A stretch of DNA of 64,000 bases from Acidimicrobiia bacterium (GTDB taxonomy: Bacteria > Actinomycetota > Acidimicrobiia > IMCC26256 > PALSA-555): positions 1,215 through 65,214 of the forward strand of contig JBCKKA010000002.1 in assembly GCA_038904515.1 (NCBI GenBank), read 5' to 3'. A model generated the notes under the pieces. That model saw only the letters and a program-made list of their open reading frames with translations. It was not told where the DNA came from and made no database searches. Position 1 is the first letter of the stretch, and every line of letters begins with the position of its first letter. Of this stretch, positions 918 to 60,991 are shown piece after piece. A program made the translations under genes and the position numbers.

Positions 918-920
918 TAG

Positions 921-2755: not shown

Positions 2756-2787
2756 GTGGATAGTAACGACAGTTACGCGCGGTCCTC

Positions 2788-5252: not shown

Positions 5253-5349
5253 TGGCGGTCATGATATTTGGATGGGTTTCTTCTGAAAATCCGTTACGCT
5301 CGAATCGGGCTCGCCGCGAACGGCGCGCACTCAACCGAAAGGCGCAACT

Positions 5350-6174: not shown

Positions 6175-6285
6175 ATCGCGACAGCCGAAGTTTGCGCCCG
6201 CGGTTATCCGGCCACAGGCAGTTATTTACGGGGCAGCAGTTTGTGTCTGCGGTCACCCGGCCGCGGGCACCCGGCCGCGGTGAGG

Positions 6286-6915
6286 TTAGAACCGCCGCAG
6301 CAGAGTGACGACTTTGCCGTAGATGGCAATCTCGTTGGGCTCGAAAATCATGTCGTCCATAGTGGGGTTTTGGGGGCGCAACACGACTTTGTCCTGCTGA
6401 CGCACGAAGGTTTTTACCGTGGCTTCACCGCCAGGGATACCGGCCACCACGATGTCGCCCGATTCGGCGGTGGGTTGATGGCGTACGACCACATGGTCGC
6501 CGTCCATGATGCCGGCGTCGATCATCGACTCGCCCCGCACCCGCAGCATGAATAACTCGCCTGATCCGGTGAAGTCTTCGGGCATCGGGATGGTCTCCTC
6601 GATATTTTCTTCGGCGAGCACGCCGACGCCCGCGGCCACATCGCCCACGAGGGGAATGTGACGCACCGGCCGGCGTTCGACCGCCGCGCCCGAGGCCGAG
6701 TCGTAGATCAATTCCATCGCCCGAGGCTTGGCCGGGTCGCGCTTAAGAAAGCCTTTGTCTTGAAGGGCAACGAGGTGGGCGTGGACGGTGGAGCTCGAAG
6801 AAAGTCCGAGCGCCTCGCCGATCTCGCGCACGCTGGGCGGGTAGCCCCGAGTCCGGAATTCGGCATCGATGAATTCGAGGACCTGACGCTGGCGGTCGGT
6901 TAGTTCTTCACTCAT
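6286..6915 (-). CDS. lexA: SOS repressor LexA
   Basis: Winged-helix N-terminus (LTDRQRQVLEFI...GYPPSVREIGEAL), the cleavage-site region, and the Ser/Lys dyad contexts GESMIDAGI and TVKTF. SOS boxes lie upstream. Confidence 0.95.
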   Translation of the reverse strand: MSEELTDRQRQVLEFIDAEFRTRGYPPSVREIGEALGLSSSSTVHAHLVALQDKGFLKRDPAKPRAMELIYDSASGAAVERRPVRHIPLVGDVAAGVGVLAEENIEETIPMPEDFTGSGELFMLRVRGESMIDAGIMDGDHVVVRHQPTAESGDIVVAGIPGGEATVKTFVRQQDKVVLRPQNPTMDDMIFEPNEIAIYGKVVTLLRRF

Positions 6916-7003
6916 AGTTGAGGCTCCTAAATATCTATTTGGTATATTTATTGGGTTTTAGGGGCATAGGCCCGAGGTTTTTGCAGGTATAGACACCCTA
7001 ACA

Positions 7004-7078
7004 CGAATATATGTTCGGGGCGAACATTTGTTCTTGACAGGCGAACATTTGTTCTGTCATACTACGAACATACGTTCG
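7004..7078. promoter_or_regulatory. cluster of four LexA (SOS) boxes plus a sigma-70-like promoter facing the LysM gene
   Basis: GAAC-N4-GTTC type sites: 7004-7017 cGAATatatGTTCg (weaker), 7021-7034 cGAACatttGTTCt, 7042-7055 cGAACatttGTTCt and 7065-7078 cGAACatacGTTCg. TTGACA at 7034-7039 and CATACT at 7058-7063 (18-nt spacer) are overlapped by boxes 2-4. Confidence 0.85.
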
Positions 7079-7098
7079 GGCCCGAAAGGAAAAGATCC

Positions 7099-7503
7099 AT
7101 GACCACCATGACCACCAACCTCGGATTCATAACGACCGGTCCCGCGACCCGCCGTTTGAGACCGCGTTCGACCCCTCGGCGCGGTTCCCAGGTTTCTCAA
7201 GTCACTTATATTCGTCGCCGGGTGTTCGTGGCCCTGTTGGCATCAGTGCTTGTGGTCACGGTGGCCACGGCCGGTAGCGCGCTCGGAGATGCTCCCCTCG
7301 CATCCTCCGAGCGCACTCCGCCGGCCGGTCAAATTGCGACTTCGCCTGCGCACACGGCCGTAGTGCGGGCGGGGGATTCGCTCTGGTCGATCGTCTCGCG
7401 TCTGGCCCCCAATAAAGATCCTCGTCCACTAGTTGACGACCTTTCGCTGGCGCGCAACGGTGCCCCGTTGATCCCCGGCGAAACCATAAGTCTTGATCAA
7501 TAA
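7099..7503 (+). CDS. LysM-domain membrane-anchored protein, divergent from lexA
   Basis: N-terminal TM helix (VFVALLASVLVVTVATA). C-terminal LysM-like segment VVRAGDSLWSIVSRLAP...LIPGETISL. Same position as the SOS-induced LysM gene next to lexA in mycobacteria. Confidence 0.7.
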   Translation: MTTMTTNLGFITTGPATRRLRPRSTPRRGSQVSQVTYIRRRVFVALLASVLVVTVATAGSALGDAPLASSERTPPAGQIATSPAHTAVVRAGDSLWSIVSRLAPNKDPRPLVDDLSLARNGAPLIPGETISLDQ

Positions 7504-7535
7504 TCTCAATCGGTAATAATCCCAATCGGTAATAG
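7504..7535. repeat. 16-bp tandem duplication (TCYCAATCGGTAATAR) with a degenerate third copy
   Basis: TCTCAATCGGTAATAA at 7504-7519 and TCCCAATCGGTAATAG at 7520-7535, followed by TCCCTAATAACTCCC. Lies in the LysM-nrdR spacer. Confidence 0.8.
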
Positions 7536-7643
7536 TCCCTAATAACTCCCGAATTAACGGTCTAATTGACCGGTTCGACTCTCAAGGTATTTATGTTCAC
7601 TGATCCCATGATTTCTACCGTGCTTACGGGTACGGTGGTGCTT

Positions 7644-8105
7644 ATGAATTGCCCGTACTGCCAAGCCGACGACGACAAGGTTGTCGATTCGCGTCCCAGC
7701 GAAGATGGCGGCGCGGTGCGACGGCGACGCGAGTGTTTGGCCTGCGGTCGGCGTTACACCACCCATGAACGGCCGGTCGAACTTCCGCTGATGGTGGTCA
7801 AGCGCTCAGGATTACGCGAGCCGTTCGAGCGCTCCAAGATCACCGACGGCATCGAAAAGGCGCTGGCCGGAGCCGAAATTGCCCCCGCCGCCCTCGAAGC
7901 GCTCATCGATGGCATTGAAGAAGACGCCCGCGCCTCGGCCCCCGAAGTGTCGAGCGAACAGCTGGGTCAGGGAGTGCTGGAGCGATTGCGGGAGATCGAT
8001 GAAGTCTCCTACCTTCGTTTCGCCTCGGTCTACAAAGGTTTCAATGAAGCCGAAGATTTTGAGCGCGAAGCGGTTGAGCTCGCTAAAACTACCGACCCCG
8101 AATAA
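7644..8105 (+). CDS. nrdR: transcriptional repressor NrdR
   Basis: MNCPYCQADDDKVVDSRP...CLACGRRYTT zinc ribbon plus an ATP-cone. ATG 7644 was chosen because orthologues begin at the zinc ribbon. The track ORF from 7566 is longer. Confidence 0.9.
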   Translation: MNCPYCQADDDKVVDSRPSEDGGAVRRRRECLACGRRYTTHERPVELPLMVVKRSGLREPFERSKITDGIEKALAGAEIAPAALEALIDGIEEDARASAPEVSSEQLGQGVLERLREIDEVSYLRFASVYKGFNEAEDFEREAVELAKTTDPE

Positions 8106-8117
8106 TCCCTTCTAACC

Positions 8118-8138
8118 CCAGCCCATTTATGGGGCTGG
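8118..8138 (+). terminator. possible nrdR terminator hairpin
   Basis: CCAGCCC (8118-8124) pairs with GGGCTGG (8132-8138) across a 7-nt loop, 13 nt after the nrdR stop. No U-tract. Confidence 0.35.
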
Positions 8139-8146
8139 TGGGGGAC

Positions 8147-8225
8147 TTGACAAGAAGGTAGTTCCAGTGTTGTAATTTACCCTCTATGTAGGGTGGTCCG
8201 TACATGATATCACCATATATGGTAG
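8147..8225 (+). promoter_or_regulatory. nrdJ promoter with two tandem NrdR boxes
   Basis: TTGACA at 8147-8152, an 18-nt spacer, TGTAAT at 8171-8176. Two 16-bp palindrome-like boxes: 8179-8194 (ACCCTCTATGTAGGGT) and 8210-8225 (TCACCATATATGGTAG). Their centres are 31 bp apart, the usual NrdR-box geometry. Confidence 0.7.
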
Positions 8226-8276
8226 AAATATCCGCTACTATTTCATTCACTTATTCATACCGAAGGGACTTCACCA

Positions 8277-11060
8277 ATGACCATCGCACCGGAGCAAATC
8301 GGAATCGGAATTCGTCGCTACTTCACTCAGGCCGGGGAGCACCCTTACGACGCGATTGAATGGGAACACCGCGACGCGCGTATTCAAAATTACAAAGACG
8401 GCACCGACGCGTTCTTTCAGCCCGACTGCGAATTCCCGTTGGACTGGTCGCAAAACGCCACCAACATCGTGGCGCAAAAATATTTCCGCGGTACGCCCAA
8501 CACTTCCGAGCGCGAAACTTCGTTGCGCCAAGTGATCGATCGCGTGGCCGACACCATTACCGCGTGGGGAACGCGTGACGGTTACTTCGTTGACGATCAA
8601 GAAGGGGCAACTTTTCGCAACGAACTCAAAGCCATTCTCGTTACTCAACGCGCCGCGTTCAACTCTCCGGTGTGGTTCAACATCGGCGTGGCCGGCGTGC
8701 CGCAACAAGCGAGCGCGTGTTTCATTCTTGCGGTCGAAGACACTATGGACGGAATTCTTAACTGGTACCGCGAAGAAGGAACTATTTTTAAGGGTGGTTC
8801 GGGTTCGGGAATTAATCTTTCGGGAATTCGTTCTTCGGTAGAAAATCTTGCCGGCGGCGGAACTGCTTCGGGACCGGTAAGTTTTATGCGCGGCGCCGAC
8901 TCGTCGGCCGGAACTATTAAGAGCGGCGGTAAAACTCGCCGGGCCGCCAAGATGGTTGTGCTCAACATCGATCACCCCGACATCGAAGAATTCATTTGGT
9001 GCAAGGCGCGCGAAGAGCGCAAAGCGCGCGCGTTGCGCGACGCCGGTTTTGATATGGACCTCGACGGCTCCGACTCGTTTTCGGTGCAGTACCAAAATGC
9101 CAACAACTCAGTGCGACTCACCGATGATTTCATGGCCGCAGTCGAAGCCGATCGCGACTGGGATCTGCGAGCGGTAAAAACCGGTGAGCCAGTAAAGACT
9201 CTGCGAGCGCGCGACCTCATGTTACAGATTGCCAAGTCGGCGTGGGAATGCGCCGACCCGGGTCTGCAGTTCGACACTACGGTTAACCGTTGGCACACTG
9301 CGCCCAACACCGCGCGCATCAATGCCTCGAACCCGTGTTCCGAATACATGCACATCGACAACTCGGCTTGCAACTTGGCCAGCATCAACTTGCTCAAGTA
9401 CCTCGACGGCGACGACAACTTCGATGTAACCGGTTTTGAACACACCATCGAAGTGATGTTCACCGCCCAAGAAATTTTGGTTGGTAACGCCGACTACCCA
9501 ACACCGATGATCGGCGAGAACAGCCGCAAGTTTCGCCAACTCGGTTTGGGTTACGCCAACTTGGGCGCGTTGCTCATGGCGCAAGGTGTCGCGTACGACT
9601 CAGTCGCCGGACGGGCATGGGCGGGCGCGATCACCGCGCTTATGACCGGTCACGCGTACGCCACCAGCGCGCGCACCGCGGGTCGCATGGGTCCGTTCGC
9701 CGGTTTTGCCGAAAACGCGGAGCCGATGGTTGAGGTATTGCGCATGCACCGCGCCGAAGTGGCCAAGATCGACGAAGAGTTGGTGCCGCTCGAGATTCTC
9801 GGTGCCGCGCAGCGTTCGTGGGACGAAGCGGTCGAACTCGGTGAGATTCACGGAGTGCGTAACTCCCAAGCCACCGTGCTCGCGCCGACCGGAACTATCG
9901 GTCTCATGATGGACTGCGACACCACCGGTATCGAGCCCGACCTCGCGCTCACTAAGGCCAAGAAATTGGTCGGCGGCGGCACGATGTTCATTGTCAACCA
10001 AACCATCCCGCGCTCGTTGCGCAAACTGGGATACTCGCCCGCCGAAGTGGAAGGAATTATTTCCTACATCGACGAGCAAAAGACCATTGTGGGGGCGCCG
10101 GCATTTAAAGAAGACCACCTGCCGATTTTCGCCTGTTCAATGGGCGACAATGTCATTCACTACATGGGTCACGTTAATATGATGGCGGCCGCGCAGCCGT
10201 TCTTGTCGGGCGCGATTTCTAAGACGGTCAATATGCCCGAAGAAGCCACCATCGAAGATGTCGAGAGTCTCTACTTTGAGTCTTGGAAGTTGGGTCTCAA
10301 AGCGGTGGCGATCTACCGCGACAACTGCAAGGTGGGTCAGCCCCTCTCCACGCAGAAAAAAGCGGGTGCATCCGACGATGACAGTACCGACCCGCTTACT
10401 TCGCAAGTAGAGCGGATTATCGAGACCGTCATCGTGCAAGAGCCCGTGCGGCAGAAGTTGCCCCGAATTCGCCAGTCGAAGACTTTTTCCTTCCGAGTGG
10501 CCGACTGTCACGGCTACGCCACGGTGGGTGAATTCGAAGACGGCCGACCCGGCGAAGTGTTTCTCAAAGTGGCTAAGCAAGGATCCACTCTCTCAGGGAT
10601 TATGGACGCCTTTGCCATTGCCATGAGCTTGGGTCTGCAGTACGGGGTTCCGTTGCGGGCTTTCATCGAGAAGTTCACCAGCATGCGCTTCGAGCCCGCC
10701 GGTATTACCGACGATCCCGAGATCCGTTTTGCTACCAGCTTGGTCGACTACATCTTCCGGCGTTTGGCGGTCGAATACATCTCGCCCGAAGATCGGGCCG
10801 ATATGGGCATATTTACCGTCAACGAACGGATGCAACCGACCCTTCCGGGAGTCGAAGAAGCCGCCACGCCTACTCGAACCAGCACCAACCCGTTGCCCCT
10901 TGAGGATCAGGCTCCGTCGGCCGCCCTGAACGCGCCAACGATTAAACCCAAGGCGCGTCAGTCGGAAATGGTGATCTGTTCAGTCTGTGGCGACATTATG
11001 CAGCGGGCCGGTTCGTGCCACGCCTGCCCGTCGTGCGGTGCTACTAGCGGCTGCTCCTGA
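8277..11060 (+). CDS. nrdJ: adenosylcobalamin-dependent (class II) ribonucleotide reductase
   Basis: 927 aa. Contains ATP-cone-less N-terminus, RNR barrel motifs including the active-site SNPCSEY, and a C-terminal Cys-rich tail CSVCGDIMQRAGSCHACPSCG. Lies directly downstream of nrdR and the NrdR boxes. Confidence 0.9.
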   Translation: MTIAPEQIGIGIRRYFTQAGEHPYDAIEWEHRDARIQNYKDGTDAFFQPDCEFPLDWSQNATNIVAQKYFRGTPNTSERETSLRQVIDRVADTITAWGTRDGYFVDDQEGATFRNELKAILVTQRAAFNSPVWFNIGVAGVPQQASACFILAVEDTMDGILNWYREEGTIFKGGSGSGINLSGIRSSVENLAGGGTASGPVSFMRGADSSAGTIKSGGKTRRAAKMVVLNIDHPDIEEFIWCKAREERKARALRDAGFDMDLDGSDSFSVQYQNANNSVRLTDDFMAAVEADRDWDLRAVKTGEPVKTLRARDLMLQIAKSAWECADPGLQFDTTVNRWHTAPNTARINASNPCSEYMHIDNSACNLASINLLKYLDGDDNFDVTGFEHTIEVMFTAQEILVGNADYPTPMIGENSRKFRQLGLGYANLGALLMAQGVAYDSVAGRAWAGAITALMTGHAYATSARTAGRMGPFAGFAENAEPMVEVLRMHRAEVAKIDEELVPLEILGAAQRSWDEAVELGEIHGVRNSQATVLAPTGTIGLMMDCDTTGIEPDLALTKAKKLVGGGTMFIVNQTIPRSLRKLGYSPAEVEGIISYIDEQKTIVGAPAFKEDHLPIFACSMGDNVIHYMGHVNMMAAAQPFLSGAISKTVNMPEEATIEDVESLYFESWKLGLKAVAIYRDNCKVGQPLSTQKKAGASDDDSTDPLTSQVERIIETVIVQEPVRQKLPRIRQSKTFSFRVADCHGYATVGEFEDGRPGEVFLKVAKQGSTLSGIMDAFAIAMSLGLQYGVPLRAFIEKFTSMRFEPAGITDDPEIRFATSLVDYIFRRLAVEYISPEDRADMGIFTVNERMQPTLPGVEEAATPTRTSTNPLPLEDQAPSAALNAPTIKPKARQSEMVICSVCGDIMQRAGSCHACPSCGATSGCS

Positions 11061-11086
11061 TGTCGAATTGCGTCCTCGCTCCTGGT

Positions 11087-11103
11087 GACGAGATCGTCTC
11101 GTC
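11087..11103 (+). terminator. weak hairpin after nrdJ
   Basis: GACGAGA tcg TCTCGTC, a 7-bp stem, 27 nt after the nrdJ stop. No U-tract. Confidence 0.3.
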
Positions 11104-11133
11104 GCCCGCCGCGTAGCAGTCGGTCGCCATCTC

Positions 11134-12177
11134 TTGGAAGCAGCAGCGCAGCAGCACCGGCAGCGGCTATGGCCGCGGTTCGCGATCCGCTCCGCGAACG
11201 TCGGCCATAACCTCGACGTCTTCTTGGTCGTCGCGATCTGCTCGGTGATTGGGAACCGCACGTTCCTGATGATCACCGGCTATCCGCAGCTCGGGAACGG
11301 GACGCTCCACATCTCGCACGCGATCTGGGGCGCCGCGATGATGGGGATTGCCATCGTGTGGTCGATCTCCTACCTCGGCCCGTCGACGCGCGCCTTCGTC
11401 GCGGTGCTGGGGGGCGCAGGCTTCGGATGGTTCGTCGACGAGCTGGGCAAGTTCGTCACGCGCGACGTCAACTACTTCTGGCAACCGACGATCGCGCTCA
11501 TCTACATGATCTTCATCGCCATGTACCTGACGTTCCGCTCGCTCGAGCGCCGGACGTTCGGTCCGAGCGAGGGGATGCTGAACGCCCTCGAAGCGCTGAA
11601 GTCGGCCGCCCTCGGCCAGCTGAGCGAGCCCAGCCGGCAGGATGCGTTGGACCTGTTCGACCGCACCGAACCGACGAGCCCGCTCGCCGCGAAGGTGCGA
11701 GCGCTCCTCGACGACGCCGACGTGCTCCCGCCGGTCGAGCTGGGCCGCTTCCACCGATCCGGTGAATTGCTGCGTGCCCACTACGTCGGATGGACCGCGC
11801 GCCCGTGGTTCACCGTCGTGCTCGACTCGATCTTCGCCCTCTACGCCGCCGTCGCGTTAACGACCGTGCTGGCCCTCGCGATCGACAGGTCGGGGATCAC
11901 CTCGTTCCCCGAGCGGGTCACCGTCATCGCGTCGTCGGTGTCGGGCATCCTGATCCTGATCGGCGTGACCCAGCTCCGCCGTTCACGCATCCGTGCGTAC
12001 CAGTGGTTCGGGCGCGGGTTGCTCGTCAACATCTTCGTCACCCAGATCTTCGTGTTCGCCGAGGAGCAGCTCGGCGCGATCTTCGGTCTCGCCGTCACGC
12101 TCTCGGTGTGGGTGATGCTGCAATCCGCGGCCCGCGTCGAGGAAGCCCGCTCGCGTGAAGCAGCACGCGCCGCGTAG
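11134..12177 (+). CDS. multi-pass integral membrane protein, family not recognised (GC-rich insert)
   Basis: 347-codon ORF with very strong G/C third-position bias (38 of 40 codons hand-counted). Several hydrophobic helices flank a charged central segment. The start (TTG 11134) is uncertain. Confidence 0.6.
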   Translation: MEAAAQQHRQRLWPRFAIRSANVGHNLDVFLVVAICSVIGNRTFLMITGYPQLGNGTLHISHAIWGAAMMGIAIVWSISYLGPSTRAFVAVLGGAGFGWFVDELGKFVTRDVNYFWQPTIALIYMIFIAMYLTFRSLERRTFGPSEGMLNALEALKSAALGQLSEPSRQDALDLFDRTEPTSPLAAKVRALLDDADVLPPVELGRFHRSGELLRAHYVGWTARPWFTVVLDSIFALYAAVALTTVLALAIDRSGITSFPERVTVIASSVSGILILIGVTQLRRSRIRAYQWFGRGLLVNIFVTQIFVFAEEQLGAIFGLAVTLSVWVMLQSAARVEEARSREAARAA

Positions 12178-16015: not shown

Positions 16016-17314
16016 TTATTCGCCTTTGATCATTTCGCGGGCCGGCGTTCGCAGTCCGTCTCGCACTACTGAACGAACGGATTGTCGCCCGTGAATAATA
16101 ACGATAATTGCTAGCACGAGGTACATGATGCCGACCCCTAATCGTACCCGGCTGGCGAGATCGGAAGGCAAGATCACACCCAAAAGAAACTGGGATACGA
16201 AAAGTCCTAAGAGCCAAACTGCTTCGCGTACGCTCAATTTACGACTGACCAGCACCGCCACCGCAAAAGCCGACTGGGCCGCGGTCAAAAAGAGCTCTTC
16301 GCGCTGGCGCACATCGATCGGCAAGCCCGACACCGCGCCCCCTGCCACTATGAACACCAACGGCAAGAAACCCACGAGTAAAGTCCACTGATTGACTTTT
16401 GATGAAAGCAATACCCCTAGTCCGGCCGATGATTTGAGATGGTAGGCAAATAATCCCGCCACTAACAATTCGGGCGATTCGGTCGCGAGTGGCGCCACCC
16501 ACTGCACGAGAAGAAATGTACTAATCCCCGCAGATTTTCCGGTGGCAATAAGTGATTCGGCGAAAGGTCCGGCGCAGAGATAAATAATAAATCCGGAGTA
16601 GGCGAGCAGCGCGCCAACCGCGACCCGCCGACCGGTCTTAGTTAGGGCGCCGAGCAGTTGAGCGGGGCCTTCTAACTCGGGTTCGCCCGCGGGTGCATTC
16701 CAGATACGCGAGACGTAAAAGCCGTAAAGCCCAATCAAAATCACCGCGTCGTAGATAGTCACATGGTCTTTTAGGGGAAGGCTGAGTGAATACAGCGTGG
16801 CCAGAGCCAGAATCACGATTTCAATCGCTTGCGGTCGAGCGAGGGCGACTTCGGTATCGACCGCGCCGACGTAGTTATTCCGCCGAGCAATTTTTTTCAA
16901 TCGCCACGCACCGATGAAAACCACGAGCGGCCAACCAATACCAATGAGAAGTCGGTTGCTTCCGGTCATGTTGGCCAACGCGAGCGGGGCGTAATCGAGA
17001 TTGCCACCAGCCTTGTAAGCAAAAGTAAAATCGACCGCATATTCGGGTAGCACAGCAATTAAGGCCAGCACGCCAATGGCAAGACCACGCGAAACGTCGA
17101 GCTCAAGGGCCTCGGCGGCCCAGGTGAGCAAAAATGCCGATCCGACTATGCCTACGCCAAAGACGCCTGCGGCCAAAATATTTTCGGGGTGTATTTCGCC
17201 GAGCCGCACAACTAGCGCGGGCCCAGTGAGAGCCGCAGCCGCGAGAATCGCGATTATTTTTCGTGAGCGATATTCGACCGGCATCAGTTTGAGGCTAGCG
17301 GTCGGTCGGTTCAA
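16016..17314 (-). CDS. Ca2+/cation antiporter (CaCA / sodium-calcium exchanger) family membrane protein
   Basis: 432 aa and polytopic. Two alpha-repeat-like motifs, AVLPEYAVD and LATESPELLVAG. Confidence 0.55.
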   Translation of the reverse strand: MNRPTASLKLMPVEYRSRKIIAILAAAALTGPALVVRLGEIHPENILAAGVFGVGIVGSAFLLTWAAEALELDVSRGLAIGVLALIAVLPEYAVDFTFAYKAGGNLDYAPLALANMTGSNRLLIGIGWPLVVFIGAWRLKKIARRNNYVGAVDTEVALARPQAIEIVILALATLYSLSLPLKDHVTIYDAVILIGLYGFYVSRIWNAPAGEPELEGPAQLLGALTKTGRRVAVGALLAYSGFIIYLCAGPFAESLIATGKSAGISTFLLVQWVAPLATESPELLVAGLFAYHLKSSAGLGVLLSSKVNQWTLLVGFLPLVFIVAGGAVSGLPIDVRQREELFLTAAQSAFAVAVLVSRKLSVREAVWLLGLFVSQFLLGVILPSDLASRVRLGVGIMYLVLAIIVIIHGRQSVRSVVRDGLRTPAREMIKGE

Positions 17315-17418: not shown

Positions 17419-17479
17419 GACGCCAAGAGCAGGCCAAGAAGACGTCAAGAGCAGGCCAAGAAGACGCCAAGAGCAGGCG
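17419..17479. repeat. 22-bp tandem array, 2.8 copies (GACGYCAAGAGCAGGCCAAGAA)
   Basis: Copies at 17419-17440 and 17441-17462 (one C/T difference), plus a partial copy at 17463-17479. It ends 17 nt before the whiB ATG, just before the SD GAAAGGA. Confidence 0.95.
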
Positions 17480-17495: not shown

Positions 17496-17735
17496 ATGGT
17501 TATTGATCGCGAACATTCACAGTGGTGGGACCTTGCTAAGTGCCGAGGGGTCGATCCCGATATCTTTTATCCCGTGTCTGAGCAAGAAGCGACTGCGGCC
17601 CTCGCAATCTGTGCCGAATGTCCGGTACGGGCGGTGTGCCTCGAACACGCTTTGGCCCTTGAAGAGCGCGACGGAGTCTGGGGCGGCACCACTCCTCGCC
17701 AGCGTCGAGAATTGCGACGAGCACAAACCGCCTAA
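17496..17735 (+). CDS. WhiB-family Fe-S transcriptional regulator
   Basis: Four Cys (KC..., ICAECPVRAVC) and the C-terminal GVWGGTTPRQRRELRR turn with basic tail. SD GAAAGGA lies upstream. Confidence 0.9.
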   Translation: MVIDREHSQWWDLAKCRGVDPDIFYPVSEQEATAALAICAECPVRAVCLEHALALEERDGVWGGTTPRQRRELRRAQTA

Positions 17736-24407: not shown

Positions 24408-26267
24408 TTATGAATCCGGTTGCAGAATCAACGCAAGTTGATCGGTAAGGCGGGGCAACACTTCTCGCCAATCGCCCACGACGCCGATGTCGGCGGCCGC
24501 GAATATCGGCGCGGCGGGGTCGGAATTAATCGCGACTACGGTTCCGGCCTGACCGATTCCAACCGCGTGGTTGAATTTTCCACTGCTGCCGATAGCGATA
24601 AAAAGTCTCGGCGCAATTGACCGACCGGTAATGCCGACTTGGCGCGAGCGGGGCAGCCAACCGGCATCGGTGACTTTACGAGTAGCCGCCAGTGGCGCGT
24701 TCAGTAGCGTGAGCAAAGGGTCGAGCAAAGGGTAATCGTCAGGATCGACGCCCATACCGACGCCGACCACGGTGGTTGCGTCGGCGAGCAAATTGAGATC
24801 GTCATTGCGAGTGCGGGTCAATACCTGCACGCGACTTTCGGGCGCGACGATTTGATTGGTGACGGTCGGCGTGCTGGAGCGGGGGGTCCACGGCCCGAGC
24901 ATTCCGCTGCGCACGGTCGCCATTTGTATTGGCGAGGTGGCAGTGATTGCCGCCACGAGTTGGCCACCGAATGCAGGTTTCCACGCGACTAGACGGCCGT
25001 CGTCAACCTCAAGCATCACTGCATCGCTAGTTAGACCAGCGCCTAGTCGGGCCGCACTGCGACCAGTTATTTCGCGACCCCACGCGGTACTGGGAGCAAG
25101 AATCGCCCACGGGGTAAAAGTTTGCGCCCACTCGGCCACTACGCGCCCGATGTCTTGCTCGACTATTCCAGTGGTGGCGACGGCATTGAGCAGGTGGGTG
25201 GGCGGTTCGGGGTAAGTAAAATTAATAATCGAATCGGCACCGGCGGCTCCTAGATCTGAAGTTCGATCAGTGGTATCGAAGTTAAGGGCAACTACCCAAC
25301 CCGCTAATTCCGAATTCGCTAATTTTTGGGCTAGACCAGCCGCCGCACCCAACAATTCGTGGGTAAGTTCTTGGCGATCGGGCTCTACTAACACACCAAT
25401 AATCGGACCTTGGTCAGAGGCCGCGACCCGATCGGGAACAACTGGCGATAAAGAAGCCGTCGAAGCGTCCGCACGACCGAGGGCGTCGCGTCGCTCCAGC
25501 AATTCAATTATTTGGGCTACTTGTTTGTCGATAGTTCCGACTCCGATGATTTTTTCCCGCGCCACAATGTGAGCACGAATTTCGCCTACTCCCGTAGGGC
25601 TAGCTGCGGCACCCCACGGGCCGGGGCCGAGTTCAGCCGTGCCGATGGTTTCGATCAATTCGGGTGCTACTTGCGCCCCTCTGGTTTCGTCAACTTTGCA
25701 CGGGTCGATAAGTCTTTCGGCGCAAGAAATTAGGGCCGGCATTTCTATTCGTAACTGCGCCCAACCGTCGTCGTGTTCACAACGTAAGTGAAGAGTTGAT
25801 CCCTTTACGCTTAGATAGCGCACTCCGGTGGCAAAAGGGAGATCCATTAGTTCGGCAATCTCGGGCCCCACCTGACCGGTATCGGAGTCAACCGAATTGA
25901 GCCCCGTCAAAATGAGATCGAACGGACCGGATCGAGCGAGCGCGGCGGCGAGCGCGCGCGCGGTCGCGAGAGTGTCGGAGCCAGCAAAAGCGGTTTCGCT
26001 GATCAAAACACCGTTAATGATTACCGCGTTCTGTTCCCCCCAAGCAATGGCTTCTCGCAACACCGCTTCGGCCGCGGGGGGTCCGAGGGTAAATACCGTC
26101 ACCGAACCGTCGCCTACCGCGGCCGCGAGCTCAACTGCCTGAGCCGCGGCTCGACGGCAATACGGATTCATCTCGAGTTCGACGCCGTCCCGTTGTAGTC
26201 GCCCGTCGGCGCCTAACTGCAGTTCGGTGAAAGCCGGTATCTGTTTAACCAGCGCGGCGATGCGCAT
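24408..26267 (-). CDS. fused electron-transfer flavoprotein, EtfB-like N-half and EtfA-like C-half
   Basis: A single 619-codon ORF. The N-half has MRIAALVKQIP...EMNPYCRRAAAQAVEL (EtfB/FixA-like). The C-half ends with TRKVTDAGWLPRSRQVGITGRSIAPRLFIAIGSSGKFNH...VVAINSDPAAPIF...DIGVVGD (the EtfA FAD-binding signature). Confidence 0.8.
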   Translation of the reverse strand: MRIAALVKQIPAFTELQLGADGRLQRDGVELEMNPYCRRAAAQAVELAAAVGDGSVTVFTLGPPAAEAVLREAIAWGEQNAVIINGVLISETAFAGSDTLATARALAAALARSGPFDLILTGLNSVDSDTGQVGPEIAELMDLPFATGVRYLSVKGSTLHLRCEHDDGWAQLRIEMPALISCAERLIDPCKVDETRGAQVAPELIETIGTAELGPGPWGAAASPTGVGEIRAHIVAREKIIGVGTIDKQVAQIIELLERRDALGRADASTASLSPVVPDRVAASDQGPIIGVLVEPDRQELTHELLGAAAGLAQKLANSELAGWVVALNFDTTDRTSDLGAAGADSIINFTYPEPPTHLLNAVATTGIVEQDIGRVVAEWAQTFTPWAILAPSTAWGREITGRSAARLGAGLTSDAVMLEVDDGRLVAWKPAFGGQLVAAITATSPIQMATVRSGMLGPWTPRSSTPTVTNQIVAPESRVQVLTRTRNDDLNLLADATTVVGVGMGVDPDDYPLLDPLLTLLNAPLAATRKVTDAGWLPRSRQVGITGRSIAPRLFIAIGSSGKFNHAVGIGQAGTVVAINSDPAAPIFAAADIGVVGDWREVLPRLTDQLALILQPDS

Positions 26268-29271: not shown

Positions 29272-30480
29272 TTAAGCGCGAGGAAAGATTGCGCGGTCGG
29301 CGATGATGTTTTTCTGGACCTCAGTTGCACCGGCACCGATGGAGGTATAGCGCTGAAAACTGTAGAGCCGAGTCCAGCTACCGCCATCAATGGCACCCGG
29401 TCCACCTTTGGCCAACAGACCGGATGGCCCGAGTAAATCAACTGCCAGTTCGGCCAAAGTTTGCGCCAGATGACTCCACTGCAATTTGGCCAGCGGTACT
29501 TCCGGCCAGTTCTTTTGGCCTTTGATGATTTTGGTTAAAGCCCGATAGTTGAGCAATTTAGTGAACTCAATATCGGTATGGGCCCGAGCAATGCGTCCAC
29601 GAATTTCGGGGTCGTTAAGCGAATCGGGGTTTACTGCCCGCGCCGCCGAAATCATTGCCCGCAAGTCGGCGGCCATAGTTATGGCGAGACCCGCGGTGCC
29701 GACGCGTTCGTGACCAAGAGTCCCCATAGCCACTTTCCAGCCCGCGCCTTCTTCACCCAGACGATGAGCGACCGGAATACGCGCGTCGGTAAACCAAACT
29801 TCATTGAACATTTCTTCGCCCACGAGATCACGAATGGGCCGACATTCAATTCCCGGAGTTTCCATGTCGATGATGAACGCAGTTATACCTTCGTGCTTAG
29901 CGCCTCGCTCAATAGCAGTGGGGTCGGTGCGTAAAAGAAATAGTCCCCACTTAGCGAGATGGGCAGTAGAAATCCAAATTTTTTGTCCGTTAACTACATA
30001 CTCATCACCGTCGAGTATCGCGGTAGTGCGCAAGTTGGCGAGGTCGGAACCAGCCTGAGGCTCGCTGAACCCTTGGCACCAGTGTTCCTCGGCGGAAAGA
30101 ATTCCCGGTAGCCACTGATTACGCTGCTCTTCAGTACCCCAGTGAATAATCATGGGACCGATTTGCCACAGACCGTTGGCGTTGTAAATTCCCGGTGCGC
30201 GTACCCGCGCCATTTCTTCGGAGTAGATGACATTTTGCACCGGAGTGGCGGCGCGTCCATGCCAGTCGGTCGGCCAATTGATTGCCGCCCATCGACCTTC
30301 GTCGAGTCGGCGCTGCCAATCCTTGCGGCGCTCCTGAGCACGGGCGATGCCAGATTGTCGACCGCCACCCGGATCGTCGTCGCCACTCCAATCGGCTAAA
30401 AATTTCGGCAGATTGATATCCAGCCAAGTGCGCAGTTCGTCGCGAAACGCCTCGTCTTCAGGGGTGTCGGCGAAGTCCAT
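29272..30480 (-). CDS. acyl-CoA dehydrogenase (402 aa, canonical C-terminal catalytic motif)
   Basis: ACAD N, middle and C domains. CQGFSEPQAGSD motif and C-terminal IGAGATEVQKNIIA with the catalytic-position Glu. Confidence 0.85.
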   Translation of the reverse strand: MDFADTPEDEAFRDELRTWLDINLPKFLADWSGDDDPGGGRQSGIARAQERRKDWQRRLDEGRWAAINWPTDWHGRAATPVQNVIYSEEMARVRAPGIYNANGLWQIGPMIIHWGTEEQRNQWLPGILSAEEHWCQGFSEPQAGSDLANLRTTAILDGDEYVVNGQKIWISTAHLAKWGLFLLRTDPTAIERGAKHEGITAFIIDMETPGIECRPIRDLVGEEMFNEVWFTDARIPVAHRLGEEGAGWKVAMGTLGHERVGTAGLAITMAADLRAMISAARAVNPDSLNDPEIRGRIARAHTDIEFTKLLNYRALTKIIKGQKNWPEVPLAKLQWSHLAQTLAELAVDLLGPSGLLAKGGPGAIDGGSWTRLYSFQRYTSIGAGATEVQKNIIADRAIFPRA

Positions 30481-30516
30481 AGTGGTTCCTGTTCGATCGG
30501 GTGGAGACTAAGAGGT

Positions 30517-30540
30517 GATTTCGGGATTTCTGGATTTCTG
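30517..30540. repeat. 8-bp tandem array, 3 copies (GATTTCKG)
   Basis: GATTTCGG GATTTCTG GATTTCTG, 37-60 nt upstream of the minus-strand ACAD start at 30480. Confidence 0.8.
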
Positions 30541-30571
30541 GTTATCGTTACAATATCAAGGCCAGCGGGCA

Positions 30572-30600
30572 TTGACTAACGTTCGTGTCAGGTTTTAAAT
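30572..30600 (+). promoter_or_regulatory. sigma-70-like promoter candidate for the 30729 ACAD gene
   Basis: TTGACT at 30572-30577, a 17-nt spacer, TTAAAT at 30595-30600. This would place the 14-bp array in the transcribed leader. Confidence 0.45.
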
Positions 30601-30615
30601 CGACTCCATAAGCTT

Positions 30616-30713
30616 GACCCAGCAACCTTGACCCAGCAACCTTGACCCAGCAACCTTGACCCAGCAACCTCGACCCAGCAACCTCGACCCAGCAACCTCG
30701 ACCCAGCAACCTT
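30616..30713. repeat. 14-bp tandem array, 7 copies (GACCCAGCAACCTY)
   Basis: Copies start at 30616, 30630 and 30644 (..CTT), at 30658, 30672 and 30686 (..CTC), and at 30700 (..CTT). The array ends at the SD GAGAGGA, 15 nt before ATG 30729. Confidence 0.97.
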
Positions 30714-30728
30714 GAGAGGAACCACTCC

Positions 30729-31823
30729 ATGGATTTCACTTTCTCCGACGACCAAGACGCTTTGCGTGAGTCGGTCCGCACCTTTCTCGCCAATGAGGCC
30801 GCCGGTCCGTACAGCCGAGCCATGGCCGACGATGAACGGGGTTTCACCGACGAGATGTGGCGCAAGATCTCCGATTTGGGTTGGCCGGGTCTGTTGATCG
30901 CCGAGGAGCACGGTGGTCTTGGTCTCGGGCTTGTCGACATGGCGGTCGTGATGGAAGAGATGGGCCGCTTGCCGTTCCCCGGACCGTTTTTTTCTTCCTC
31001 GGTGCTGGCCACACTGGCCGCCCAACGCTTAGGTGCGGACGATTTATTATCCGCCTTAGCTTCGGGAACTTTGCGAGGCACAGTGGCGCTAGAAGAACAA
31101 GGTCACGGCGATCCGGTAAAGCGAATACGCACTCGTGCCCGGCGCAAAGGTGCCGACTGGGTTTTGTCGGGAGAGAAATTATTTGTTCTCGACGGTCACA
31201 CCGCCGACTGGGTAATCGTGGTGGCGCGCACCGAAGAGGGAGTCGGCTCGTTTTTGCTACAGGCACCCAACGCAAAAGCAGTTCCTACTCTCGACCCCAC
31301 TCGCAAAGCGGCGTGTTTAGTTCTTGACGAAACTCCAGTCGAAGCAATTGGGCCATTAGGCGACCATACGGGAATTTGGAACCGCATTGTTGACGACGGT
31401 GCAGTAATGCTTTCGTCCGAATTAGTTGGCGCGTGCGACGCCGCAGTTAACTTGGCAGTTGAATACGCCAAAGTGAGAGTGCAATTTGATCGTCCAATCT
31501 CTTCGTTCCAAGCCATTCGCCATAAAGCAGTTGACATGTTGCACCGACTTGAGTTGTCGCGAGTGGGTTCGCACTACGCCGCTTGGACTTCTGATGTTGA
31601 CGACCCTGCTCGCGAACAGGCCGCGGCGATGGCTAAGGGATTTATTGGCGAAGCAGCCATTTTTGTTTCCGGCGAAGACATTCAGATTCACGGCGGTGTC
31701 GGCTTCACTTGGGATTGCGACGCGCACTTCTATTACAAGCGAGCCAAGCAGAACGATATCTTGCTGGGTTATCAGGGTTATCAACGCAATCGCTTGGCCA
31801 GTCTTTTGCTTGACTCCGCTTAA
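30729..31823 (+). CDS. acyl-CoA dehydrogenase family protein (364 aa, lacks the canonical C-terminal Glu motif)
   Basis: ACAD fold starting MDFTFSDDQDALRESV. The C-terminus reads LLGYQGYQRNRLA where other ACADs have G-T/S-x-E-I/V-Q. A Glu is present in SSELVGA (helix-G position). Confidence 0.8.
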   Translation: MDFTFSDDQDALRESVRTFLANEAAGPYSRAMADDERGFTDEMWRKISDLGWPGLLIAEEHGGLGLGLVDMAVVMEEMGRLPFPGPFFSSSVLATLAAQRLGADDLLSALASGTLRGTVALEEQGHGDPVKRIRTRARRKGADWVLSGEKLFVLDGHTADWVIVVARTEEGVGSFLLQAPNAKAVPTLDPTRKAACLVLDETPVEAIGPLGDHTGIWNRIVDDGAVMLSSELVGACDAAVNLAVEYAKVRVQFDRPISSFQAIRHKAVDMLHRLELSRVGSHYAAWTSDVDDPAREQAAAMAKGFIGEAAIFVSGEDIQIHGGVGFTWDCDAHFYYKRAKQNDILLGYQGYQRNRLASLLLDSA

Positions 31824-31837
31824 GCAATAATAAGAGC

Positions 31838-33532
31838 GTGCCAAAGACTGAAAAGGTTGTCTCGCTTCACGATGCCGTAGCTGAACATGTACGCGCGGGC
31901 GACTCTCTCTATCTCGGCGTAGGCCACTCGCGTTGGACTGCCGCCGCGAGTGAAGTTGTCCGGCAATGGTGGGGACGCGATCCTGGTTTCGAGTTACTAA
32001 TGCTCTCATTGTCAAGTTTGGGAACCCTATTTTTTCGCGGGGGATTAGTACGACGAGTCCTTACCGGATACTCCGGCGATACTTTTCCTAACTTCACTCC
32101 CAATCCCATTTTCGCCGCGGCTTACGGTAGCGGGGAAGTAACGGTGGAGCATTGGTCGTTCTTGGCGTTTACGCAACGGCTGGAGGCCGCCGCTCGAGGT
32201 TTGCCCGCGATTGTTACTCGATCTATTTCCGATTCGTCGATGGCAACCAATCCGGCGTTCACTCAAGTAAAGACCGAACTGGGGGAGATCAGTTTGCTAG
32301 CACCGTTATTTCCCGATGTGGCGTTATTGCACGCGCCGGTAGCCGACCGCGCCGGCAATGTAGCTCTGCATCCGCCTCTACTCGAGAGTCCGTGGGGCGC
32401 GTTGGCCGCTCGACGAGGAGCAGTGGTGACAGTCGAAAAAGTGGTTGACGATTTAAGCGAGTGGTCGCATTTAGTGCGACTACCGGCTCATCGAGTTTTA
32501 GCAGTGTGCGAAGTTCCGTTAGGCGCTCATCCGGGTGGTTTGTTTAGTGGCACTTTGCCGGTCGATAGTTACGGCGAGGATTACGATTTTTGGATCGAGC
32601 TGCGCGCGGCAACTCGCCGCGATGATTTTGACGAATGGATTCAGCACTGGATTCTCGATGTTAAGAGCCCCGACGACTACCTCGATCGCCTCGGCCCCGA
32701 ACGAGTAAAACAGTTGCGAGCCAAAGCCGATCCTGAATCGTGGCGGCAAGAAATTATCGAGTCGCCTCCTGATCTCACCGCGCCGATTAATAAATGGGAA
32801 ACGGCCGCAGTGTGGGGGGCCCGCCATTTGACCGAACGGGTTTTGGCGCTTGATGCCGACGCAGTATTGGCGGGGGCGGGAGTGGCTAATTTGGCCGCGT
32901 GGCTAGCGGTAGCTCAGGCGCGCGCCGCGGGCAGCACGGTGCAACTCACCGCTGAAATCGGACTGTGGGGTTACGACCCAGTGCCGGGCGATCCGTTTGT
33001 GCTTAATCATCGCAACTTTCCGCGGTCATTGATGCTGAGTGATGCCAATACTGTGCTCGGCAGTTTGGTAGGTGGACAGGGAACCAAAACGCTGGCTTGC
33101 TTGGGCGGAGCCCAAATCGATCGGCAAGGAAATGTGAACTCAACCATGATTCCCGATGGCGCTTTCTTGGTGGGATCGGGTGGGGGTAACGATGTGGCTT
33201 CGGTGTGCAGTGAAGCGATTGTGGTCGCGCTACTCAATCCCGCGCGCACTCCCGACAAATGTGGCTACATCACTTCACCGGGTCGAGCGGTGCGGGCACT
33301 AGTAACCGATTTAGGAATTCTTGAAAAACTCGAATCCGGCGGTGATTTGATCCTTACCGCCGTTCCCGCGGGTCCCGATCCTTTGCCCGAACGAATTGCC
33401 ACTGCAGTAGCGGCGTGCGGTTGGGACCTGGCCGTAGCCGAAGAAGTGCGAGAACTCGATGCGCCTACCACCGACGAAGTGAATGCATTGCGCACTTGGG
33501 ATCCCCACGGGTGGTTCTTGCGCAATCGCTAG
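31838..33532 (+). CDS. family I CoA-transferase-fold protein with A-like and B-like subunits fused
   Basis: 564 aa. The N-half resembles glutaconate-CoA-transferase subunit A (KVVSLHDAVAEHVRAGDSLYLG). The C-half resembles subunit B (LTAEIGLWGY, GGAQIDRQGNVNST, GSGGGND). Confidence 0.7.
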   Translation: MPKTEKVVSLHDAVAEHVRAGDSLYLGVGHSRWTAAASEVVRQWWGRDPGFELLMLSLSSLGTLFFRGGLVRRVLTGYSGDTFPNFTPNPIFAAAYGSGEVTVEHWSFLAFTQRLEAAARGLPAIVTRSISDSSMATNPAFTQVKTELGEISLLAPLFPDVALLHAPVADRAGNVALHPPLLESPWGALAARRGAVVTVEKVVDDLSEWSHLVRLPAHRVLAVCEVPLGAHPGGLFSGTLPVDSYGEDYDFWIELRAATRRDDFDEWIQHWILDVKSPDDYLDRLGPERVKQLRAKADPESWRQEIIESPPDLTAPINKWETAAVWGARHLTERVLALDADAVLAGAGVANLAAWLAVAQARAAGSTVQLTAEIGLWGYDPVPGDPFVLNHRNFPRSLMLSDANTVLGSLVGGQGTKTLACLGGAQIDRQGNVNSTMIPDGAFLVGSGGGNDVASVCSEAIVVALLNPARTPDKCGYITSPGRAVRALVTDLGILEKLESGGDLILTAVPAGPDPLPERIATAVAACGWDLAVAEEVRELDAPTTDEVNALRTWDPHGWFLRNR

Positions 33533-37131: not shown

Positions 37132-37156
37132 AGGTTGAATCTAGCGAAGTGGGCGA

Positions 37157-38347
37157 CTAGCGGGTGCGAGCCGGTTCTTTAGGTAATCCCAGCACTCGTT
37201 CGCTAAGGATGTTGCGTTGAATCTCGTTAGTACCAGCCCAGATGGAAGATGCTTGGTAATAAAGCCAAGATCGTTGCCAAGTACCACCGCCGGGGTTTTC
37301 GTCGGCCCCGATCCAAAGTGGCGCCGCGGGTCCGAGCACGGCCATAACGGTGTCGTGCATTCGCTTACTCATTTCACTCCAGTAAAGCTTGAGCGCACTA
37401 CCTTCGGGGCCCGGTGCTTCACCTTTGGCTAAACGCGACAGCGTGCGCCAGTTATGAAGTTGAAATAGTCGCACTTCGACCGCGGCTTGAGCCAGACGAG
37501 GACGCAGCCGGGGATCGTCGAACGCACCGTTTTCAACCGCCATCTTTAGCAATTCTTCAATCAATTGAATATGAATTACTAGTTGACGAGGATTTATTCC
37601 CCGCTCGTGGGTGAGAGTGGAGTTGGCTACCCGCCAGCCTTCGTTAACCGGACCAATACGCTGTGCATCAGGAATAACTACATCGTTAAAAAATACTTCG
37701 TTAAATTCTCGTTCGTCAGTAATTTGGTGCAGCGGACGCACCTCGACTCCAGGCGCGTGCATGTCGACTGCGAAGGTAGTAATGCTTTTATGTTTAGGAC
37801 CGTCCTTATCAGTACGGGCTAGACACAGTCCCCAGTCGGCGAATTGTGCGTAAGAGGTCCAGACTTTTTGGCCGTTAAGGATCCAGTCGCTTCCATAAGG
37901 TTCGGCGCTAGTGCTAATAGCCGCGAGGTCGCTACCAGCACCCGGTTCACTAAACAGTTGGCACCAAAGATGGTCGGCGGGAGGGATCATCGGCAGCCAC
38001 CGTTGCTTTTGTTCATCGGTGCCATGAGCTAACAGAGTGGGGCCGACGAGGTTGATTCCGATCCGGCCGACGAGTTCGGGCGCGCGTGCTCGCGCCAATT
38101 CTTCAGTGACGATGAAATGCTCAACCGGGCCCGCACCGCGTCCGCCGTATTCGACTGGCCACGGCACTCCCACCCAACGTCCTTGGGCTAATTGCGATTG
38201 CCAGTTTCGCCCGAAAGCAACTTCTTCTTCGAGAGTCTCAAAGCGGGGCGGCAGTCCGCTACCGTATTCCCACGGCAAGTTTTCTTGCAGCCAAGCGCGA
38301 ACTTCACTACGAAGTTCGGCTTCAATCGATGACGGCGCCAGATCCAC
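37157..38347 (-). CDS. acyl-CoA dehydrogenase (about 397 aa; start inferred at GTG 38347)
   Basis: CQLFSEPGAGSD and the C-terminal IWAGTNEIQRNILSERVLGLP. The track ORF (to 38428) would overlap the gltA 3' end, and the N-terminal alignment with paralogue 29272 favours the shorter form. Confidence 0.8.
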   Translation of the reverse strand: MDLAPSSIEAELRSEVRAWLQENLPWEYGSGLPPRFETLEEEVAFGRNWQSQLAQGRWVGVPWPVEYGGRGAGPVEHFIVTEELARARAPELVGRIGINLVGPTLLAHGTDEQKQRWLPMIPPADHLWCQLFSEPGAGSDLAAISTSAEPYGSDWILNGQKVWTSYAQFADWGLCLARTDKDGPKHKSITTFAVDMHAPGVEVRPLHQITDEREFNEVFFNDVVIPDAQRIGPVNEGWRVANSTLTHERGINPRQLVIHIQLIEELLKMAVENGAFDDPRLRPRLAQAAVEVRLFQLHNWRTLSRLAKGEAPGPEGSALKLYWSEMSKRMHDTVMAVLGPAAPLWIGADENPGGGTWQRSWLYYQASSIWAGTNEIQRNILSERVLGLPKEPARTR

Positions 38348-43680: not shown

Positions 43681-43778
43681 CAGTAAATCCAGCAGTAAAT
43701 CCAGCCAGTAAAGCCAGCCAGTGAAGCCAGCAGTGAAGCCAGCAGTGAAGCCAGTAGTGAAGCCAGTAGCAAAGAAGG
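43681..43778. repeat. 12/13-bp tandem array, about 8 copies (CAGTGAAGCCAG and variants)
   Basis: CAGTAAATCCAG x2 (the second followed by an extra C), CAGTAAAGCCAG (+C), CAGTGAAGCCAG x3, TAGTGAAGCCAG, then the degenerate TAGCAAAGAAGG that provides the SD for the P450 ATG at 43790. Confidence 0.95.
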
Positions 43779-45868: not shown

Positions 45869-46358
45869 ATGACCAAGAGGATTGAGTATCGCACTTGCCC
45901 CTTTTGTGAGGCGACCTGTGGTCTTGAACTCCATCTAGAAGATTCTGAAATAACTTTGGTCCGGGGCGATCGCGACGATGTTTTCAGCAAAGGTTTTCTT
46001 TGTCCTAAGAGCATGGATGCATAACCTCGACATTCTTGTCAAAGGCAAAGATCGGTGCACGCTTCAAGTTCATCCCGACGACGCACAAAAAATCGGAGTT
46101 GCGCCCGGACAAATAGCGCGGGTCAAGTCGAAAGCAGGAGAACTCGAAGTGGCGGTTGATATCACCGACGCGTTGATGCCGGGAGTAGTGAGCCTGCCCC
46201 ACGGTTGGGGTCACGGCTCAAACCAAATTCAGATGGGCGTCGCCCGCGAGCGGGCGGGAGTCAACAGCAATATTTTGACCGACAGTTCGTTAGTCGATCC
46301 ACTATCGGGGAATGCAGTACTTAACGGAATACCGGTCGAGGTTTCGCTAGCTACTTGA
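45869..46358 (+). pseudogene. remnant of a molybdopterin (bis-MGD) oxidoreductase: N-terminal 4Fe-4S segment fused out of frame to the C-terminal MGD-binding domain
   Basis: 45869-46024 encodes MTKRIEYRTCPFCEATCGLE...GDRDDVFSKGFLCPKS then a stop. In the +1 frame from about 46007 it reads AWMHNLDILVKGKDRCTLQVHPDDA...VVSLPHGWGH...LNGIPVEV. The roughly 600 residues normally between these segments are missing. Confidence 0.8.
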
Positions 46359-60959: not shown

Positions 60960-60987
60960 AAATAATGGGAGCGAAATAACGGGAGCG
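60960..60987. repeat. 14-bp tandem duplication carrying the Shine-Dalgarno (AAATAAYGGGAGCG x2)
   Basis: AAATAATGGGAGCG at 60960-60973 and AAATAACGGGAGCG at 60974-60987. The ATG is at 60992. Confidence 0.85.
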
Positions 60988-60991
60988 GCAA

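Follow-up and report, generated by a model that had tools for sequence, protein, structure and literature searches.

Strain-variable tandem repeats flank a conserved operator-like palindrome in a divergent acyl-CoA dehydrogenase spacer of an uncultured Acidimicrobiia species

Introduction

A short DNA repeat directly in front of a start codon raises the question of whether it belongs to the machinery that controls the gene or is a variable sequence that the gene tolerates. The 64,000-nucleotide stretch of Acidimicrobiia DNA analyzed here (the window) poses this question in a 248-bp spacer between two divergent acyl-CoA dehydrogenase genes. Seven copies of a 14-bp unit run into the ribosome-binding site of one gene, and three copies of an 8-bp unit are located on the side of the other gene. 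An original prediction, made from the sequence alone, described the 14-bp array as a recently expanded leader downstream of a good promoter. The main consequence of the present analysis is the removal of a false lead, as the array proves to be a fast-evolving variable repeat instead of a conserved regulatory leader.

Results and discussion

Architecture of the divergent dehydrogenase spacer

The spacer (positions 30481–30728) separates two acyl-CoA dehydrogenase genes, each of which contains all three Pfam domains of the family (Acyl-CoA_dh_N, _M and _1). The leftward gene (29272–30480, minus strand) encodes a 402-residue protein, and the rightward gene (30729–31823, plus strand) encodes a 364-residue protein from an ATG at 30729. 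The rightward gene is followed by a co-directional CoA-transferase gene (31838–33532, plus strand; Pfam CoA_trans), with which it probably forms an operon. The gene order from the dehydrogenase to the CoA-transferase is identical in every strain. In the protein collection, entry P0001 is 100% identical to the 364-residue dehydrogenase, and the sister strains fall within the same 90% cluster; exact-protein look-ups with the dehydrogenase and the P450 that the window itself encodes returned no record.

A search of species-representative genomes with the 364-residue dehydrogenase identified 80 loci, almost all of them in Acidimicrobiia MAGs, and the best match (89% protein identity) comes from a Lake Baikal MAG. 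The divergent arrangement is kept in approximately 65 of the 80 Acidimicrobiia loci. The orthologous spacers are mostly just 25–130 bp long, and some lineages contain an extra 0.8–1.5 kb. A regulator gene inside this insert was considered and rejected, given that the insert encodes a proline-rich membrane-anchored protein and no DNA-binding protein.

The two divergent genes share a ribosome-binding context. The sequence AGGAACCACT, followed by ATG, precedes the leftward gene on its sense strand (30481–30490, minus strand), and the same context is found in front of the rightward gene as a perfect inverted copy at 30717–30726 (inverted repeat I1; 10 nt, 100% complementary). The ribosome-binding site of the rightward gene, GAGAGGAA, occupies positions 30714–30721 on the plus strand and is retained in the strains, where it reads GAAAGGAA.

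Tandem arrays of 14-bp and 8-bp units

The 14-bp unit GACCCAGCAACCTY is repeated seven times at 30616–30713 (plus strand), and the array runs into GAGAGGAA and the ATG at 30729, in full agreement with the predicted coordinates. TRF places the extent of the array at 30613–30715, with a period of 14, 7.4 copies, 97% matches and a score of 185. All seven exact matches to GACCCAGCAACCTY in the 64 kb are located at 30616–30713. When up to two mismatches are allowed, the number of matches is again seven, all within the array, compared with 0.74 expected, and none of 100 shuffles reaches seven. The final bases of the seven units are T, T, T, C, C, C and T, which reproduces the 3+3+1 block pattern of CTT and CTC variants. 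The 103-nt array contains 46 C, 29 A, 15 G and 13 T residues (C 45%, A 28%, G 15% and U 13% as RNA) and was thus correctly described as C/A-rich and G-poor.

The 8-bp array, GATTTCKG ×3 (GATTTCGG GATTTCTG GATTTCTG), is present at 30517–30540, as the prediction had it, and is recognized by TRF with a period of 8, 3.1 copies and a score of 43. On the sense strand of the leftward gene, the array reads (CAGAAATC)n. Both arrays are far above chance expectation. The sequence supports a non-coding nature for both, a property that had been claimed for the 14-mer. Within the window and 173 fetched loci, the 14-mer is found only in the orthologous spacer, and a dispersed repeat family was rejected on the basis of this uniqueness.

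Copy number differs between strains of one species

Contigs of the same species were recovered by a metagenome scan and protein-cluster look-ups and share 96.4–98.1% nucleotide identity with the window over ∼33 kb. The window contains seven 14-mer units and three 8-mer units in its 248-bp spacer. Four strain contigs (L161–L164) contain two 14-mer units and four 8-mer units in a spacer of 186 bp, and the partial contig L165 contains two 14-mer units and ends before the 8-mer array. L166 carries five 14-mer units, the first of which is degenerate, and four 8-mer units in a 228-bp spacer. L167 carries six 14-mer units, several of them variant, and eight 8-mer units in a 274-bp spacer. Because all of these sequences are metagenome assemblies, the exact unit counts of the longer alleles could be mis-assembled. 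In our judgment, the 28-bp two-unit allele cannot be a collapsed form of a longer array at the usual assembly k-mer sizes. The two-unit allele is identical in the five contigs L161–L165, each of which comes from a different sample, with three databases represented.

The flanks, the operator-like site described below and the ribosome-binding site are conserved across all strain contigs. Neither array is found in two relatives with 88–89% protein identity (L001 and L081), which have a single GATTTGG. The strain comparison thus reveals a polymorphism of both arrays (2, 5, 6 or 7 units of the 14-mer and 3, 4, 4 or 8 units of the 8-mer), and the 14-mer array is present in strain contigs that span the spacer. 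Since conspecifics carry 2, 5, 6 or 7 units between the same flanks and the 88–89% relatives carry none, the alignments confirm the recent expansion that was deduced from the unit variants. Judged by the same alignments, the arrays are no conserved regulatory device but ordinary, fast-evolving repeats whose copy number varies within one uncultured Acidimicrobiia species.

A conserved operator-like palindrome overlaps the candidate promoters

An operator-like site, ACTAACGTTCGTGTCAGGTTT, is located at 30575–30595, with one match in the 64 kb compared with 0.03 expected. The palindrome of the site is written as CTAACGTTCGTGTCAGG. No second copy of the motif was found in the 64-kb window, and no regulator gene was found near the palindrome. 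Most orthologous spacers contain CTAAC-N5-GTGTCAGG, and more distant lineages contain the full palindrome CCTGACA-N5-TGTCAGG, which is the ancestral form of the site. Across the class, the operator-like site recurs in the majority of orthologous spacers; its orientation varies, and its usual distance to the downstream ATG is 11–32 nt. In the window, this distance is 136 nt. It is 32 nt in L081 and in L001, the latter being the closest of the relatives that lack the 14-mer array. The palindrome, and not the array, is the conserved regulatory element of the spacer.

The operator-like site overlaps TTGACT, the −35 hexamer of a candidate rightward promoter (30572–30600, plus strand). This candidate consists of TTGACT (30572–30577) and TTAAAT (30595–30600) with a 17-nt spacing. 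The hexamers, coordinates and spacing are as originally given, but the ratings "near-consensus" and "good" did not stand: a sigma-70 scan of 30300–30900 returned zero sites, and the −10 hexamer is unconserved and lacks the key A. The scan misses TTAAAT because this hexamer has T instead of A at position 2. The −10 hexamer is TCAAAT in the sister strains L161–L167, and the spacing between the −35 and −10 hexamers is 19 nt in L001 and L081. The rightward candidate is thus weak, with a −10 hexamer that varies between strains. A promoter inside the array and a strong promoter upstream were both rejected on the basis of the blank scan in 30300–30900.

Our reading of the sequence and alignments suggests an overlapping candidate promoter in the opposite direction (30550–30578, minus strand), with TAGTCA at 30573–30578, a 17-nt spacing and TATTGT at 30550–30555. 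Its hexamers and spacing are kept in the strains and in L001, where the −10 hexamer is TATGGT, and it scores below the scanner threshold. In this clade, the leftward candidate appears to be better conserved than the rightward candidate. If the leftward candidate is used, the 8-mer array would be part of the leftward 5′ UTR. As anticipated, the 14-mer separates the regulatory core of the spacer from the ribosome-binding site, and it very probably belongs to the 5′ UTR of the rightward gene, which is a well-supported inference.

Repeat arrays elsewhere in the window

The dehydrogenase spacer is not a special locus, as at least two further leader arrays in the window are equally variable. A second divergent spacer, between a dehydrogenase gene and a P450 gene, contains a 12-bp unit (CAGTGAAGCCAG) repeated seven times at 43681–43766, just 5′ of the P450 ribosome-binding site. 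Approximately seven units are found in the window, compared with a 1.5-unit proto-repeat in five strain contigs. A 22-bp unit is repeated 2.7 times at 17419–17478, immediately 5′ of the ribosome-binding site for a WhiB-family gene (17496–17735), and the related metagenome contig L173 contains 1.7 units. Thus, the four leader arrays that were compared between strains (the 14-mer, the 8-mer, the P450 12-mer and the whiB 22-mer) are all polymorphic. All four of these variable non-coding arrays precede genes; three adjoin lipid-catabolic genes, and all four have a sense strand that is rich in A and poor in T.

Additional arrays are found in the window, and every array has a different unit. Co-directional intergenic spacers contain a 16-bp unit repeated 2.6 times (7499–7539) and a pair of arrays with 14-bp and 9-bp units, each repeated twice (60960–61008), in both cases just upstream of the next gene. 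A 12-bp unit (CACTCAGTCGGT) is repeated 6.5 times at 929–1006 (region 921–1007), between the miaB stop codon and the conserved N-terminus of miaA. The miaA array is in frame from a GTG at 921 and would encode (TQSV)n, so it may constitute a variable N-terminal extension rather than a leader. High-scoring arrays occur at a density of 6.25 per 100 kb in the window, compared with 1.33 per 100 kb across 829 kb from relatives (Poisson P = 0.011).

An unbiased indel census over ∼33 kb between the window and the strain contigs indicated that most indels of at least 4 bp are repeat-unit changes or are located in repeat regions. Coding indels are nearly all multiples of three (15, 6, 30, 21, 9 and 12 bp), in addition to two 7-bp gaps that are each found beside larger gaps in repeat regions. 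Non-coding indels measure 8, 70 and 74 bp, and an unclassified 19-bp indel is located in a divergent spacer. The variation of both leader and coding repeats, with coding changes almost entirely in multiples of three, points to species-wide slippage that is filtered by selection. According to the gene map, the convergent spacers of this compact genome are only 7–35 bp long, so promoter-side spacers are nearly the sole refuge for non-triplet arrays. Mutation under purifying selection would be expected to produce such a distribution.

Arrays that are absent from the window were also observed in sister strains. L166 contains a 45-bp unit repeated 2.1 times at a convergent gene junction (1043–1139). 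L167 contains two in-frame 15-bp arrays (4431–4562; window equivalent 25252–25465) in the linker of a fused ETF alpha/beta gene, whose product has 642 residues in L167 compared with 619.

In more distant lineages, the same dehydrogenase leader contains arrays of unrelated sequence, namely a C-rich 13-bp unit repeated 3.1 times in L015 (637–676) and a 64-bp unit repeated 2.8 times in L022 (5820–5996). These two expansions arose independently. Outside the dehydrogenase leader, L022 also contains a 105-bp unit repeated 2.5 times (899–1165).

Probable slippage-driven variation in tolerant leaders

The reading that best accommodates these observations, with a probability of roughly 0.6, is that both arrays are near-neutral, slippage-driven VNTRs in 5′ leaders beside a conserved operator-like palindrome. 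The arrays would be young tandem repeats (VNTRs or minisatellites) that arose and changed length in the divergent spacer when replication slipped or recombination was unequal. The conserved palindrome and the overlapping back-to-back promoter elements would form the functional core of this spacer. Because each array is located between this core and the ribosome-binding site of one gene, each most probably belongs to a transcribed 5′ leader. The 14-mer array would stretch the distance from the operator to the ATG, and the RNA that it adds would be an unstructured C/A-rich spacer. Such an array could be tolerated because the operator and the ribosome-binding site are untouched and the RNA is not predicted to fold onto the ribosome-binding site. 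Transcription of the array, its origin by slippage and its near-neutrality are the parts of this account that we infer.

The array would be one outcome of a general propensity of the species for adding and dropping repeat units. Coding DNA would keep nearly only in-frame unit changes, and an array of any period could survive in the scarce non-coding spacers. If the array affects expression at all, the effect should be a secondary matter of degree and not that of a dedicated switch.

Adaptive tuning and Rho loading as rival explanations

The main rival is adaptive tuning of expression, possibly through Rho loading, and the two together hold a clear minority of the probability. Tuning by itself is unlikely but carries most weight among the alternatives. 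The array would then act as a tuning knob or contingency locus, in which gain or loss of units in the leaders heritably alters expression and selection maintains the variability. Copy number could act through leader length, mRNA stability or translation efficiency on two acyl-CoA dehydrogenases, the P450 and WhiB. The polymorphism of all four compared leader arrays is consistent with such a role, as are the presence of an array in both leaders of the divergent pair, on either side of the operator-like site, and the position of all four variable non-coding arrays upstream of genes, with lipid-catabolic genes adjoining three. The independent expansion of the same leader in other lineages could also reflect selection for variability. 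Precedents are provided by the Haemophilus influenzae hmw genes (PMC12721329) and the promoter tandem repeats of Mycobacterium tuberculosis (PMC12817950). However, the genome offers hardly any other non-coding room, which accounts for the leader location, and coding repeats show the same kind of variation as non-coding ones, the outcome expected from mutation alone. The identity of the two-unit allele in five samples also argues against very rapid switching.

The predicted RNA structures likewise provide no support for tuning. The 14-mer array alone folds with −6.1 kcal/mol over 103 nt. Leader folds yield z-scores of +0.88 (175 nt) and +1.54 (312 nt), with the array single-stranded in the centroid structure. 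Simulation of leaders with 0–10 units gave the ribosome-binding site a predicted unpaired probability of 0.26–0.30 at every count from 1 to 10. Because this access is flat from one unit up, a structure-based copy-number switch is not supported, and occlusion of the ribosome-binding site in a copy-number-dependent manner was rejected. A structured RNA or riboswitch was also rejected, given the lack of a significant fold and of any Rfam match, either at gathering thresholds across the window or at E ≤ 10 in 30400–30800. A hairpin of the hmw type was rejected because a G-rich partner is absent from 312 nt of leader and coding sequence. A dedicated regulatory role of the array is thus unsupported, as the RNA is predicted to lack structure and copy number leaves the predicted accessibility of the ribosome-binding site unchanged.

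In a bolder version of adaptive tuning, the leader minisatellites of this free-living uncultured Acidimicrobiia species would be heritable rheostats that set the expression of lipid-catabolic genes and of a WhiB regulator. The arrays would be resized independently between strains, and the 14-mer would be a copy-number-graded Rho-loading or leader-length element. We regard this joint reading as quite doubtful. If it were true, the logic of contingency loci, known from pathogen surface antigens, would also apply to core metabolism in environmental bacteria.

Rho binds long, C-rich, G-poor and unstructured RNA. The leader could therefore serve as a Rho utilization site of ∼100 nt, at which transcription stops early when translation initiation is slow. 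An allele with two units (28 nt) would be too short, and the strength of attenuation would follow copy number. The 14-mer array has the composition that defines a Rho site (∼70–80 nt or more of C-rich, G-poor, unstructured RNA). It represents the most C-over-G skewed 78-nt segment on either strand of the 64 kb (37 C and 11 G, a skew that exceeds the mean by ∼4 SD). The array RNA is also predicted to lack structure, and it is positioned directly 5′ of the ribosome-binding site. Nonetheless, the skew is that of a single C-rich unit that was multiplied, and the other variable leader arrays are unskewed (C3 G4 in the P450 unit and C6 G7 in the whiB unit). The element is also unconserved even within the species: the C-rich stretch shrinks to 28 nt in the sister strains and is absent from more distant relatives. 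Because the other arrays are unskewed and the element shrinks in this manner, Rho loading is treated here as a testable possibility and not as a finding, and we consider it improbable.

A role at the DNA level, with the direct repeats as iterated sites for a regulator or nucleoid protein, is very improbable. The direct repeats are regularly spaced, and TTGACC, a −35-like hexamer, is found four times at the unit junctions. Nevertheless, the 14-bp period is out of helical phase, the junction hexamers lack a −10 partner and the unit is unique to this locus. Moreover, close relatives either lack the array or have just two of its units, whereas they retain the conserved palindrome.

Least credible is an error of metagenome assembly in the array or its copy number, even though all sequences are metagenome-assembled and tandem repeats are difficult for short-read assemblers, since the array recurs with the same flanks in eight further contigs that differ in sample, assembler and database, is made non-periodic and hence resolvable by its internal T/C variants and, at 103 bp, is below the typical read length.

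Comparison with known tandem repeats

Bacterial VNTR or minisatellite loci are intergenic tandem repeats that are used in MLVA strain typing. The arrays described here show all of the defining VNTR features that could be tested. Their near-identical units (∼8–22 bp) are arranged head to tail, the unit is locus-specific, the flanks are conserved and copy number varies between strains. The coding versions found here keep the reading frame. Unlike the usual VNTR loci, the arrays belong to uncultured free-living Acidimicrobiia, and several are clustered within 64 kb, each adjoining a ribosome-binding site.

In H. influenzae, the 5′ UTRs of hmw1A and hmw2A contain (ATCTTTC)n, and expression is inversely proportional to the repeat number (PMC12721329). 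A G-rich partner pairs with the hmw repeats in a long hairpin that RNase III cleaves (PMC12721329). The 14-mer array resembles the hmw repeats in being a copy-variable tandem repeat before a start codon and probably in being transcribed as part of the leader. Unlike the hmw repeats, it has no predicted hairpin partner or stable structure, and the allele shared by five samples gives no indication of rapid switching.

[quoted passage not shown] Both sets of repeats are actinobacterial, are positioned just upstream of metabolic genes and vary in copy number between strains or sublineages. In contrast to the M. tuberculosis units, the 8–22-bp units found here are too short for a promoter, and the scan finds none. 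The TAACTGA direct repeats of Beggiatoaceae are likewise short, intergenic and upstream of genes, with a single unit used at many loci (169 sets in one genome; PMC4679880). Unlike such shared-unit leader repeats, of the TAACTGA (PMC4679880) or STRR type, the arrays described here each have a different unit.

Uses of the arrays and additional sequence features

In metagenomes, the variable arrays could be used as markers to type strains of this lineage. The alleles with 2, 5, 6 and 7 units represent a small natural series for studying, in an actinobacterium, how expression responds to the length of a leader and to its C-rich content. If copy number does control expression, the arrays would be a case of contingency-type variation on the metabolic genes of an environmental bacterium. 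The arrays are also a warning for assembly and gene calling, as gene callers ran ORFs on both strands through the P450 array.

Sequences that resemble mobile elements were observed in related loci. In L006, a GC-rich hairpin, GCCCGCGGGCCGGGTAYCCCGGCCCGC, flanked by (AGCG)n is found immediately 5′ of both dehydrogenase ATGs (∼5935–6000 and 4850–4915). Hairpins of this type are also present in the same leader of L004, L007, L013 and L023, and the hairpin resembles a dispersed, REP- or MITE-like palindromic element with leaders as its targets. In the sister strain L161, an insert of ∼250 bp (16432–16684; window equivalent 37153–37160) is absent from the window and looks MITE-like because of its 16-bp terminal inverted repeats, GTGGCTCAGTTTGAGG and CCTCAAACTGAGCCAC.

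Two larger features of the window were also observed. Relative to L168 (12227–13985), ∼1.76 kb of a molybdopterin oxidoreductase gene is missing from the window at ∼46008–46012; the protein is intact in sister strains, with 747 residues, compared with a 571-residue ORF in the window. The two ends of the window (1–12000 and 62000–64000) have a GC content of 60–67% and a GC3 of 0.7–0.9, compared with ∼55% and 0.5–0.6 in the middle, a shift that may reflect compositional heterogeneity or a chimeric contig.
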